Of a stretch of DNA of 64,000 nucleotides, positions 42,004 to 49,261 are shown in pieces. Position 1 is the first letter of the stretch, and each line of letters begins with the position of its first letter. Location: contig CBDCVR010000013.1 of the NCBI GenBank assembly GCA_965223155.1, forward strand, positions 864,001 to 928,000, read 5' to 3'. The notes below the pieces were generated by a model. The model searched no databases and was not told the DNA's origin. It was given only the letters and a program-made list of their open reading frames with translations. Source of the stretch: Candidatus Multivoradales bacterium. GTDB lineage: Bacteria > Acidobacteriota > Thermoanaerobaculia > Multivoradales > JAHEKO01. Both the position numbers and the translations under genes were made by a program.

Positions 42004-42211
42004 CGCTGACCTCCGTCCCATTTCGAGCCGGCTCAACTTGCATCGCAGGCGCCCTCACTCAGGAGCGAGCTGGTGCAAGACGCAAACCAAGATGTCGCTA
42101 TCTCCGCGGACGAGAGCGAGACGGAACACCGGCTGGGGGGACGCAGCAGCCGGCCAGGGTTTCGCGAAGCAACGATCCTGCGAGGGATAAGTATCCTGCC
42201 ACCGAATCCAT

Positions 42212-44594: not shown

Positions 44595-45407
44595 ATGCGA
44601 GTGACAAGAAATCTAAAGAAGAGTACTGCGAGTATCGCTGCACTGTGTGCAGTTCTATCCCCCGCAGCCGCCACCGCGCAGTCCACAGGACCCCGCACTC
44701 AGTTTGGCGCCGAAAGTTTCCACGAGAACCACAGTGCCACGGCGACATCCTTGACGACTTCGCGCGGCTTCTCCGTGGTCGTCGTCGAAGCACACGAGCA
44801 CGTTGGCGAAAAGCTATTCAACGACGCCATTCGAGTGAGCGTCAGCAGCCCCTGGGGAGAGCACTTCGAGGCCTACTTCGTAGATCACAGGAGCTTCAAG
44901 AGAATCCGAATCGTCGGAGTGGGAGAGTACAAGTTCTACCCCGGTCCAGAGGCGGGCCCTCTCACAACACCCATGGACTTCGTCTCGATCGAGACAGCTC
45001 AAGGTGTTCGAGGAGAGCACGTCGGCAACCGTGTAGAACGAGTGACCCATGGCCTGGAAACGATCGACAACATCGACCTGTACCAGGACATGGCGCTCGA
45101 GATCCACAAGAGCTTCTCGCCAGAATTCCTTGAGGGTCTTAGAGAGCTCAGCCGTCCCAGCCTCGTGCCGGCAGGCTGCAGTCTCGAGATACTGGAATGT
45201 TCTCTCGCGGTGATAGGGTGGATTGGAAGCGTAGCCGCTTTCGGACCGGCCTGTGTATATGGACTGACTCTGGGGTGTATCGCCGCGATCCTTGTCCATG
45301 AAGCTGCCAACGGCAGCGTCATCATCGCTTGCGGCAAAGCCGGCGCCTGCCTACAGGCAGAACAAGAGGAGGCTCAGCATCCCCGGACCAATCCGGACTG
45401 CGGATAG
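44595..45407 (+). CDS. Secreted protein with Cys-rich hydrophobic C-terminal region (bacteriocin-precursor-like)
   Basis: GAGGAG RBS, signal peptide, C-terminal GCSLEILECS...ACVYGLTLGCIAAIL...ACGKAGAC. Confidence 0.68.
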   Translation: MRVTRNLKKSTASIAALCAVLSPAAATAQSTGPRTQFGAESFHENHSATATSLTTSRGFSVVVVEAHEHVGEKLFNDAIRVSVSSPWGEHFEAYFVDHRSFKRIRIVGVGEYKFYPGPEAGPLTTPMDFVSIETAQGVRGEHVGNRVERVTHGLETIDNIDLYQDMALEIHKSFSPEFLEGLRELSRPSLVPAGCSLEILECSLAVIGWIGSVAAFGPACVYGLTLGCIAAILVHEAANGSVIIACGKAGACLQAEQEEAQHPRTNPDCG

Positions 45408-45431: not shown

Positions 45432-45734
45432 GTGGATTCAACACCTTGGCTCATCGCTCAACTCGTCATTGGCAACGTACTCTTGCTGATCATGCTCGGG
45501 TCCATGCGCGTCGGAGATCTCGAGAGGCAGGGAAAGAGGCTTCCCGCAATCGGGATGTTCGTCGCGTGTCTTTCCCTCTTTCTGTTGGCCGGAATCGCAC
45601 TCGCCCGGAACCTGGGTACGTGGTCCGAAACGCAAGTGGTCTTGAGCGCACTAGGCTTCGGCGCCCTATCGGCACTTACGATTCTGGCTGGCGTGCGGGT
45701 GTGGCGGTTTCCTTCTTCTCGGCACGGCGCATGA
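45432..45734 (+). CDS. Small three-TM membrane protein (possible immunity protein)
   Basis: GAGGAG RBS; three hydrophobic helices; directly follows the previous gene. Confidence 0.65.
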   Translation: MDSTPWLIAQLVIGNVLLLIMLGSMRVGDLERQGKRLPAIGMFVACLSLFLLAGIALARNLGTWSETQVVLSALGFGALSALTILAGVRVWRFPSSRHGA

Positions 45735-45981
45735 CCGAATAGCCGAACCGTCGAAAAGGCGACGAAAGGCTATTCGAGGCCGACGTCAAGCGAGGCGTCC
45801 GGTGTAGGTAGCGGCTGCTTGCACGAAGTGCCAGGCACGTCCAAATGAGGGACCGTTGGCGAGAGACCGTCGCGGCCGGCAGGATTGCGAGGAATAGGTA
45901 TCCTTCTATGAGTCGGTCGGTTGGCGTCAAGAGTTTCGTTTCTTCTTTTTGTAGTTTTCCTTAGGTTTGGATCGAGGCTTG

Positions 45982-46116
45982 GGACGAGCTTCTATTCGCA
46001 CTCTGTAGGGTTCTTCTTTGAACCGGTGCATGGTGAGTTTTGCGTCCGTTTAGGAATCGATGCTCCCATCTGTCACACGGTGTCGGGGCCACCAAGGATA
46101 CTTTCGGAGTCATCGA
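45982..46116 (-). ncRNA. Bridge/seek RNA in the 3' noncoding end of the IS
   Basis: Two stem-internal loop-stem units; loop 1 carries GTATCCTT and GTGACAGA, which match the two flanks of the insertion site. Confidence 0.8.
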
Positions 46117-46160
46117 ACCTCTCAATCCGTCCTTGCTTGTTGGTCGTCTAGTTATCTCTT

Positions 46161-47174
46161 CTACGCTGCCTTGGGAAAGGCTCGGAAGCTCTCACCTGTC
46201 ACCCACAGCCTGTGGAGCAACACCGCGATCTTCCTAGCTAGCGCGACCACGGCCTTGCCCTTACCCAGCCTCTCGACCAGGCCCTCAGCCCATCTCTTGA
46301 GTGACGACTCTTTGCGACAGTTCAACGCCGCATGAGCTGCCTGCACCAAGAGTCTGCGCATCTCCGAGTCGCCCTCGCGAGTGATCCGGCCCCTGACCTC
46401 ATGCCCTCCTGAGCTGCGAAGCGACGGTCTCAAGCCCAGACACGCTCCGACGTCGCGGCTTTTCTCGAACCGATCCGGACGATCCATCCAGCCGACGAAC
46501 GCAAGGCTCACCAGAGGCCCCACACCAGGAACCGTCTGCAGCCGACGGACCAGCTCGTTTGATCTCGACTCGGAGATGAGGTCGTCTTCGAGATGGTGGA
46601 TCCGATCGGTCAGCTCGCCGATTGTCGTTACCAGAGGTTCGAGCGCTCCCAACAGGCCGGCTTCGACCGACATCGACGCGTACCGAGCCACGAAGCTCTT
46701 CGCCGGACATGAGGGCACTCGGTAGCCCTGTGCCCGCAGCGTTCCGCGTACGGAGTTGATCAGCGAGGTCCTGGTCTTCACCAGACTCGTTCGGACCCGA
46801 AGACGCGTCCGAAGCTCTTGGGCCTCACCTGTGCGCTGGTAGACTGGTCGAAGCAAACCCAGATCCAACCGGCTCAAACGAGCCAGGATCTCGGCGTCGA
46901 TTCCGTCCGTCTTCAGGGTCGATTCCGCGATCAGACGTACCCGGCGTGGATTGACCACCATCACCTCATGGCCGAGCTCAGACAGCAGTCGATAGACCCA
47001 GGGTGTGACCGGACCGCTCTCGAGCGTCACCTGCGAGCGTTCCCGATTGGCGAAGAACCTTCGCAGGCCCGTCTCGGTCGTCGGAACCCGCCGGCGAACC
47101 GTCACCTCACCGTCTTCTGATACGCCACACACCTCGCTGTACTTCGAGTGAACATCGATGCCAAGATACTCCAT
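46161..47174 (-). CDS. IS110-family DEDD transposase/recombinase
   Basis: LGIDVHS, LESG, KTDGIDAEILA, VPGVG, GLRPSLRSSG, ALARKIAV; AAAGGAG RBS. Confidence 0.95.
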   Translation of the reverse strand: MEYLGIDVHSKYSEVCGVSEDGEVTVRRRVPTTETGLRRFFANRERSQVTLESGPVTPWVYRLLSELGHEVMVVNPRRVRLIAESTLKTDGIDAEILARLSRLDLGLLRPVYQRTGEAQELRTRLRVRTSLVKTRTSLINSVRGTLRAQGYRVPSCPAKSFVARYASMSVEAGLLGALEPLVTTIGELTDRIHHLEDDLISESRSNELVRRLQTVPGVGPLVSLAFVGWMDRPDRFEKSRDVGACLGLRPSLRSSGGHEVRGRITREGDSEMRRLLVQAAHAALNCRKESSLKRWAEGLVERLGKGKAVVALARKIAVLLHRLWVTGESFRAFPKAA

Positions 47175-47520
47175 GGTCGGTCTCCTTTCTCGGCTCTGAT
47201 GCCGATTCTTGGTTATCTCCAACTGGCACAGTGTCCCAGCTGGAGACCGACCGACTCATCTCATCTGTCACCGCTTCGACCGTTTCGACAGCTCGGAGCT
47301 TCGCGGCACCGTCAATCCACCACCGGCCAGCCGGGTCGGCCCGTTCAGGCCAGTGTTCTGCTCCACGAGCCTACGGCCCCTCCCTTCTAAGGCTTCCACC
47401 CTGAATCTGCCGCTGAACTGTCGGGACAACGGGGTCTGCTTCTAAAATCCCGCTACCATGCCGACCATCGCCGTAACTCCTGGCATCTCGATTCGCCGCT
47501 CCCCGTAGGTCGAGGAGAAA

Positions 47521-48045
47521 CTACACGAACCGCAGTCGCACATTAAACTCCTCCCAGAGTCTCCGAACGATCTCCTCTTCACAACTACCGGACCTTACGT
47601 CTGCCACGACACGGCCCTTGCTCTCGTCCTGAAAAAGCAGCAATACGAACTCAAAATCGCCGCTCAATGTATGGACGATTGACTGCCCAATCCCTTGCTT
47701 GATTGTCGAACCATAAGGGCTCTTCTTGTACTCGACCGCAACACGATAAGGGTGCGTGAGGATGAAGTCCGGGTAGTTGCGAGAACCAAATACCGGCCGC
47801 CGCTCCCGCCCGTAGACTCCCTCTTGCCCCTCCCAGTAGAAGGATGCATGAGCTTTGGCAATTGAATCCTTGTAACCAAGCTCCGAGAAGTACATCTCTA
47901 GGTATCGCACGATCAGAGGCCGGATCTCCGTCTGCACAGCGGACTCGGACTTCTTCGCGGTTTTCCTTCTGAACTGCGGATGCTTGACAATCGCAGTCAC
48001 GAGACCGTCGAGGAATTCGGTGGCTTTCTTGGTCTTCTTTCTCAC
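47521..48045 (-). CDS. Hypothetical PD-(D/E)xK nuclease-like protein
   Basis: YPDFIL...VAVEYKK...QGIGQ; AT-richer than flanks. Confidence 0.62.
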   Translation of the reverse strand: MRKKTKKATEFLDGLVTAIVKHPQFRRKTAKKSESAVQTEIRPLIVRYLEMYFSELGYKDSIAKAHASFYWEGQEGVYGRERRPVFGSRNYPDFILTHPYRVAVEYKKSPYGSTIKQGIGQSIVHTLSGDFEFVLLLFQDESKGRVVADVRSGSCEEEIVRRLWEEFNVRLRFV

Positions 48046-48048
48046 CCC

Positions 48049-49128
<1,080 letters not shown>

Positions 49129-49261
49129 CACGAGACTCCTTCTGGTTTCTTTCTGCTCTGGCAGTCTTCTTGGACTGGTTTCTGGTGGTTTCGCGGGAGA
49201 TCCAGGATATCTCACCCGGGGTCTCCTCCTCGCGACAGAAAGGCCCGTTGCCGATCCCCAA

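Follow-up and report, generated by a model that had tools for sequence, protein, structure and literature searches.

Bridge RNAs have been predicted for 93.0% of the IS1111 elements in ISfinder, as reported in PMC11208160, and such RNAs, there termed seekRNAs, were shown experimentally for four IS1111 members according to PMC11187229. In the bridge RNA described in PMC11208160 the left guide pairs with the bottom DNA strand and the right guide with the top one, both including the core, and in the seekRNAs of IS1111 elements the segment complementary to the top strand lies 5' of the other (PMC11187229). Repetitive extragenic palindromic (REP)-like repeats are known as targets of ISPpu9, ISPa11 and IS621 (PMC12288879, PMC11208160, PMC11208158). 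Here an element was analyzed that lies in a window of 64,000 nucleotides (nt), positions 864,001-928,000 of the forward strand of contig CBDCVR010000013.1 (assembly GCA_965223155.1) from Candidatus Multivoradales bacterium. With a probability of about 0.9 it is an intact, recently active insertion sequence (IS) of the IS1111 group with its own bridge (seek) RNA that matches its 13-base-pair (bp) target. The element is read on the minus strand and coordinates are positions in the window; C2, C7, C11, C13, C14 and C15 denote contigs of its own genome, and L-numbers denote loci of relatives or copies.

The inserted unit at 45905..47266, a span already given in the original prediction, comprises 1362 bp, i.e. 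a 1360-bp element and one copy of an AG core (47266-47265). A non-coding left end of 92 nt is followed by the transposase (recombinase) gene at 46161..47174, encoding 337 amino acids (aa), and by a non-coding right end of 256 nt. The protein contains the Pfam domains DEDD_Tnp_IS110 (PF01548, 8.5e-25) and Transposase_20 (PF02371, 4.5e-21) and scores 241 bits with the NCBIfam model NF033542 'IS110 family RNA-guided transposase', for which the cut-off is 140. Its nearest relatives in the PDB are the transposases of ISCro4 and IS621, the latter at 6.2e-10. It harbors the motifs GIDV (D7), LESG (E52), KTDGIDA (D90, D93) and GLRPSLRSSG (S255-G256); the D-x-x-D and SG regions align with the ISCro4 transposase, and the catalytic residues were assigned by motif. 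For IS1111-family transposases a GL-P----S(T)G motif was defined in PMC11187229. Of the two subterminal inverted repeats of 13 bp, the left one (ATGAGTCGGTCGG, 47247..47259) lies 7 nt inside the unit and is reverse-complementary to the right one (CCGACCGACTCAT, 45908..45920), which lies 3 nt inward of the right end. Their length is within the range of 7-17 bp given for IS1111 elements in PMC11208160, where such repeats are the feature separating IS1111 from IS110 proper. As is characteristic of IS1111, the longer non-coding region is located 3' of the transposase gene (256 nt vs 92 nt on the 5' side). The element resembles ISEc11, ISPa11 and ISKpn4, for which seekRNAs were demonstrated by experiment, in the length of its transposase, which falls within the 330-350 aa of the family, in the GL-P----SG motif, in the subterminal inverted repeats and in the long non-coding region 3' of the transposase gene (as described in PMC11187229). 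At the level of sequence, it has all features of an IS1111-group element of the IS110 family, and the original assignment as IS1111-type is supported by both domains, NF033542, the motifs, the inverted repeats and the 3' non-coding end. Such an element would encode a DEDD/Ser recombinase together with a bridge (seek) RNA in its 3' non-coding end, and the chemistry of this recombinase is presumed by homology to IS621 and ISEc11.

Two segments of the non-coding right end match the two halves of the target. The right target guide GUAUCCU (46101-46095, in the feature 46094..46101) is complementary to the top strand of AG+GATAC, whereas the left target guide GUGACAG (46076-46070, in the feature 46067..46076) equals the top strand GTGAC+AG and is complementary to the bottom strand. 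In the original prediction the octamers GTATCCTT at 46101-46094 and GTGACAGA at 46076-46069 were taken as flank matches. Both are found at these positions; their first seven letters do match the flanks, but the eighth (T of GTATCCTT, A of GTGACAGA) matches the element ends instead. The U that directly follows GUAUCCU, at 46094, is complementary to the base in which the right end terminates, and the AUG at 46069-46067, after GUGACAG, equals the first three nucleotides of the left end. These adjoining bases appear to resemble the handshake guides that were described for IS621 (PMC11208158). The order of the guides is the one reported for IS1111 seekRNAs, and as in ISEc11, ISPa11 and ISKpn4 the segment complementary to the top strand lies 5' of the bottom-strand one and overlaps it at the crossover (PMC11187229). 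In a shuffling test of the 256-nt non-coding end (20,000 dinucleotide shuffles), GTATCCT was found in 0.35% and GTGACAG in 1.8%, but both heptamers in this order and within 60 nt in none. The guides of this first unit would direct insertion into the 13-bp sequence GGTGAC-AG-GATAC in a REP-like repeat. Alternatively, the protein itself could choose the target, e.g. by the shape of a REP-like hairpin, and the guide-like strings would be incidental or captured pieces of the target. This is difficult to reconcile with strings that face each other across one internal loop, follow IS1111 seekRNAs in order and polarity and occur together in none of the 20,000 shuffles.

The target itself can be read from the other copies of the element. 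The genome contains 14 full-length copies and one copy that is split by another IS. Twelve of the 14 are identical, one carries a single substitution and one an additional A in the non-coding end, and the reading frames are intact in all of them. The left target half GGTGAC (47267..47272) is invariant among the 14 full copies, and the split copy has it at its left end as well. Comparison of the flanks placed a second AG core (45904-45903) and the right target half GATAC on the other side (together 45898..45904); this right flank reads AGGATAC in 13 of the full copies and AGGATGC in one. The sites of the other copies had been named beforehand as a refuting test of a shared target, and all 14 copies as well as the ends of the split copy proved to be flanked by GGTGAC...AGGATAC, in one case with the variant just given. 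Beyond these sequences the distal flanks vary by locus, except for the copies on C7 and C2, whose right flanks repeat loci of the main contigs. The uninterrupted target GGTGACAGGATAC (GGTGAC-AG-GATAC) is present at 17 unoccupied exact sites in the genome, compared with 0.08 expected from composition, whereas the empty site originally reconstructed, GGTGAC-AGA-AGGATAC (GGTGACAGAAGGATAC), does not occur in it.

For two copies located on small contigs an empty counterpart was found on the near-identical main contig C14. The copy on C11 corresponds to the empty site C14:574424/5, with a flank identity of 93.9% on one side and 99.75% on the other, and the copy on C7 corresponds to C14:366085, with 98.9% identity over 10.4 kb up to the copy. 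At both counterparts the 13-mer is uninterrupted, with an overlap of exactly AG between the alignments of the two flanks. Occupied and empty sites differ by 1362 bp and only AG is repeated, so that no duplication extends beyond the shared core. An insertion of 1362 bp with a 2-nt AG ambiguity at these pairs shows that the core is the dinucleotide AG. A core of three nucleotides, AGA, is excluded by the empty sites; a core of a single A, which for this element is indistinguishable from AG, was considered as well and may apply to the sibling lineage described below. In the proposed mechanism strands would exchange at the shared AG, and AG would consequently flank the inserted element on both sides.

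The identical copies together with the occupied and empty pairs indicate recent transposition of the element. The small contigs could represent a second strain or diverged duplications; in either case the same locus is found with and without the element. It was also considered that the copies are relics which spread by duplication or recombination of repeat-containing segments, and that the element no longer transposes. Duplicated or repeat-rich regions (C13:297-308 kb and C15:950-982 kb) do harbor some of the copies, the small contigs C2 and C7 are similar to regions of the main contigs, and neither a circle nor a joint was seen in the contigs of four out of eight public runs, although these data are uninformative on absence. 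However, relics of this kind would not be expected to comprise 12 identical copies out of 14 with all reading frames intact, to differ in their distal flanks between loci (with the exception of the C7 and C2 copies), or to be both present and absent at two loci with flank identities of 98.9% and 99.75%. Spread without transposition is therefore considered extremely unlikely.

The 13-mer is positioned between short inverted repeats, which vary by site yet stay complementary, and the target sites often form inverted pairs that are 45-90 bp apart. By these features the target is a REP-like hairpin repeat of the host genome. An unoccupied variant of it with one mismatch, GGTGGCAGGATAC, lies in the window at 42191-42203 (minus strand). 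Since the inverted repeats around the 13-mer co-vary, a structure-specific reader is conceivable, which would fit a choice of target by the protein, and the sites of some relatives fit only one of the two guides. Half-site insertion is, however, a known off-target mode of bridge recombinases according to bioRxiv 10.64898/2026.08.31.748434.

Whether guides and flanks change together was assessed among relatives of the element. A search across 45 genomes of the same family detected close relatives (E of 1e-100 or better) in 6 of them and yielded none that were new. A search of public genome contigs gave only two related loci, of which one corresponds to the element of L022, and one public relative belongs to a metagenome-assembled genome of Acidobacteria. 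The guide tests left out L035, L037 and L040 (wrong anchor extraction or truncated element), L030 and L043 (no anchor) and L023, L033, L036, L041, L042, L044 and L046 (right end not found). In 9 of 20 rows the right guide and the flank of the same element have a substring of at least 7 nt in common, as opposed to 2 of 354 non-cognate pairings; for the left guide, four or more matches outside the core are seen in 12 of 17 rows, as opposed to 2 of 230. The rows are not all independent, as A_win/L047, L016/L017 and L027/L049 are each copies of one element. In a relative from another genome that shares 45% identity, all six copies are inserted in (C/G/T)GTAG-AG-ACG(C/T)CCC, which matches its guides CCGUAGAG and GGGCGUCU. 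This joint change of guides and flanks across relatives, and a sibling element that differs in exactly these segments (see below), speak against target choice by the protein, which we regard as highly improbable.

The guides are embedded in a modelled bridge/seek RNA of 142 nt (45980..46121, ends modelled) that consists of a target-binding unit followed by a donor-binding unit. The target unit is formed by an outer stem TCGATGACTCC / GGAGCATCGA (46106..46116 / 46057..46066; helix 2, 96% paired, double changes in 5 of 8 pairs) and an inner hairpin GGUG...CACC (46079..46093; helix 3, 97.9% paired, double changes in 3 of 4 pairs). The donor unit has an outer stem GGACG / CGTCC (46043..46047 / 45982..45986; helix 4, 85.4% paired, double changes in 3 of 5 pairs), which is the weakest helix and shows many gaps in distant relatives, and an inner hairpin GCAC...GUGC with a nested GGUUC/GAACC (45998..46029; helices 5 and 6, 99.2% and 98.3% paired). 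Both units had been proposed in the original prediction, the first with the stem TCGATGACTCC (46116-46106)/GGAGCATCGA (46066-46057) around GGTG/CACC and the second with GGACG/CGTCC around GCAC/GTGC, exposing CTCA and ATAGA; all of these elements are present, and the minimum-energy fold yields both stem/internal-loop units.

Conservation of this structure was evaluated in two ways. RNAalifold, applied to an alignment of 17 relatives from genomes of the same order, recovered the target-unit outer stem and the donor-unit inner hairpin, with double changes in 8 of 19 pairs. With a covariance model built from five close sequences with the four-helix structure, 28 sources were searched, and in 25 of them the RNA was found 3' of the transposase gene. 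In the resulting alignment of 25 relatives 95.1% of the cells are paired, compared with 78.3% in shuffles and 32-48% with partners slid, double changes occur in 18 of 29 pairs and none of 500 shuffles reaches any of five measures, but the fitting of this alignment to the model biases the pair counts towards the structure. The result of RNAalifold and compensatory changes between the element and its sibling (GGTG/CACC to GGAG/CTCC and GGTTC/GAACC to GGTCC/GGACC) agree with the model-fitted alignment on the structure. By analogy with the described systems, the RNA would be made and bound by the recombinase.

The second unit exposes segments that match the ends of the element itself. The left donor guide AUAGAAG (45989..45995) equals the last five nucleotides of the right end (ATAGA) plus the AG core. 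The right donor guide CUCA (46037-46034, in the 5' side of the donor loop at 46030..46042) is complementary to positions +2 to +5 of the left end (TGAG) and is discontiguous, as was reported for the right donor guide of IS621 (PMC11208160). The third base of the left donor guide (A or G) agrees with the right end in all 22 relatives for which the right end is known, and all five nucleotides agree in 21 of them; the right-end variants are ATAGA and ATGGA, with one switch within a clade (L027 vs L034). The right donor tetramer is matched to the left end in 14 out of 19 relatives, compared with 34 of 228 non-cognate pairings, in the combinations CUCA/TGAG, CCCA/TGGG and CCAA/TTGG. The donor-loop matches, which had been put forward only tentatively, are thus supported by agreement in 22 of 22 relatives for the left and 14 of 19 for the right guide. 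With AG as the core, the predicted circle junction is CATAGA-AG-ATGAG; the junction CAT-AGA-TGAG that had been anticipated is contradicted by the core derived from the empty and occupied sites. If a circle is formed, as homology to the described systems suggests, AUAGAAG and the discontiguous CUCA would recognize the joined ends ...CATAGA-AG-ATGAG.... Taken together, the RNA structure and all four pairings between guides and DNA are supported by covariation in relatives.

Circularization would also affect expression of the transposase. An outward-facing -35-like hexamer TTGACG, a string named in the original prediction, is located at 45925..45930, 20 nt from the right end. Of 22 distinct right ends of relatives, 19 carry TTGAC at a distance of 25-26 nt from the terminus. 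Upon circularization a TAGATG was expected 16 nt after TTGACG, but the hexamer at this position is TAGAAG and TAGATG does not form. A junction-specific partner, GAAGAT with 18-nt spacing, is weak. The conserved TTGAC probably provides the -35 box of a junction-type promoter, which would face outward and read into the transposase gene after circularization.

The leader of the transposase gene contains a predicted stem as well. Its 5' arm GGTCGGTCTCC (47242..47252) pairs with the 3' arm GGAGACCGACC (47175..47185), which covers the Shine-Dalgarno sequence GGAG directly before the ATG. RNAalifold predicted 11 pairs for this stem in the 17 relatives, five of them with changes on both sides. The conserved stem would occlude the ribosome-binding site, and a structure in the 5' untranslated region with this effect was reported for ISPpu9 (PMC8450116). 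In ISPpu9 the downstream small RNA Ssr9 anneals to an antisense RNA of the leader (PMC8450116), and the RNA at the 3' end of the present element might likewise serve mainly to regulate transposase expression rather than as a guide. This possibility is suggested by the combination of a downstream small RNA and an occluding leader in ISPpu9 (PMC8450116), by the conservation of a similar leader stem here and by the complementarity of donor-loop segments to the left end, which is located in the leader. It leaves unexplained both the complementarity to the target flanks and the covariation seen in this complementarity, and the roles of regulator and guide are not mutually exclusive. A mainly regulatory function is thus considered very unlikely.

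Several observations weigh against the interpretation as a recently active, RNA-guided element, in addition to the shared origin of some guide-test rows and the fitting of the alignment to the model mentioned above. The single-sequence fold energies are unremarkable, with z values of -0.96 and -1.45. A search of Rfam 15 over 45500-47700 (E up to 1) returned only chance-level matches to NEAT1_1 and sR28 and no bridge-RNA family. The right guides of the relatives L024, L029, L048 and L026 fit their present flanks poorly. A scan of the integrated element for sigma-70-type promoters gave no site, and the best partner hexamer of TTGACG, TAGAAG with 16-nt spacing, is also present in the integrated state and is not specific to the junction. 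The contigs of four out of eight public runs contained no circle joint and no empty allele of the window site, which is uninformative on absence; contigs from these runs branch at the borders between element and target.

A sibling element with 82% identity and a length of about 1367 bp is present in two copies in the same genome, L016:1501-2867 (C15:372320) and L017:1501-2867 (C13:297857). Its ends and donor-loop sequences are the same as those of the element, whereas its target guides are different (AAAAGGGU and GUGCCAG). The sibling is inserted at GGT(G/T)CC...CC(C/T)TTT, in a second family of palindromic repeats, GGT[G/T]CC-AC-CC[C/T]TTT.... Judged from its guides and sites, the sibling is a case of reprogramming that took place naturally in a single genome. 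The donor ends and left guides of the sibling lineage carry A-G, while the right target guide is written for A-C, with GU instead of CU opposite the core. Unoccupied sites of the sibling's repeat family have AC in four out of five cases. At the junctions of this lineage (L016, L017, L021, L024, L048, L050 and L051) the left side shows AG in all eight readable cases and the right side AC in four of seven, in a small sample in which one flank repeat is common to two of the AC cases. This asymmetry can be explained by an effective core of a single base, or likewise by inheritance of the exchange product of one strand. It might represent a natural footprint of a strand exchange in which donor and target need to be identical only at the first core base and the product of one strand is inherited; we regard this reading as tentative and rather unlikely. 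Inheritance of one strand would follow from insertion of a single strand and copying of the other, a copy-and-paste mode that was proposed for IS621 from cell-free work (bioRxiv 10.64898/2026.08.31.748434).

The surroundings of the element and its copies show some further features. In the window the insertion is intergenic; the flanking open reading frames at 47521-48045 (minus strand, 174 aa) and 44595-45407 (plus strand, 270 aa) have no Pfam match, and a gene for a DeoC/LacD-family aldolase follows at 48049-49215 (minus strand). The split copy is interrupted at position 971 by a 1372-bp IS (L015:2469-3840, C7:11411-12782) encoding a 435-aa transposase of the Mutator family (PF00872). Near-identical copies of this IS are located at C14:571680, C13:299686 and C15:374671, with a fourth on C11 (5664-7038). 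Contig C2 matches several places in C15:950000-982000 at 85-97% identity, suggesting that segments several kb long are repeated there in an array; this interval includes two copies of the element (C15:955807 and 971334). At C13:297857-307752 there is a hot spot of about 10 kb, in which two copies of the element and one of the sibling are accompanied by the Mutator-family IS, a fragment of the left end and six target sites that are unoccupied. Flanked by GGTTCC|AG and located 126 bp downstream of the copy of the sibling, the left-end fragment (L017:2941-2975, C13:299287-299328) comprises about 42 bp in inverted orientation and looks like the remnant of a deleted copy.

Compared with the described systems, the element shares with IS621 the two internal loops, the pairing of the left guide with the bottom and of the right guide with the top strand, a dinucleotide core in both guides, the discontiguous right donor guide, the handshake-like adjoining bases, a REP target and a detectably homologous, though distant, protein (6.2e-10). 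In contrast to IS621 as described in the same sources (PMC11208160, PMC11208158), the RNA is located 3' of the gene, the order of the guides is reversed, the core is AG instead of CT and the subterminal repeats measure 13 bp instead of 2-3 bp. Like ISPpu9 and ISPpu10 of Pseudomonas putida, it is present in multiple copies in repetitive palindromic sequences and has a small-RNA gene downstream of the transposase gene as well as a leader structure over the ribosome-binding site, but repeat family and guides are different (PMC8450116, PMC12288879). ISPpu9 is also reported to form modular circles (PMC8450116, PMC12288879). From ISEc11, ISPa11 and ISKpn4 the element, which is known from sequence alone and was compared by described features, differs in its target GGTGAC-AG-GATAC and in its host lineage. 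It is a clean new example of the IS110/IS1111 kind and no new kind of system, and it or a close relative may already be catalogued in ISfinder. As bridge RNAs had already been predicted for the majority of IS1111 elements, it leaves the understanding of the family unchanged. The element does provide a bridge-recombinase system that is fully resolved and comes from a lineage distant from the enterobacterial and pseudomonad models. Its 7+7-nt target guides, donor guides, AG core and exact target are all readable, and by the evidence above it was recently active in its host. Together with its sibling it forms a pair within one genome that amounts to a natural reprogramming experiment, in which the ends and the donor loop are the same while the target loops and the targeted repeat families are different.

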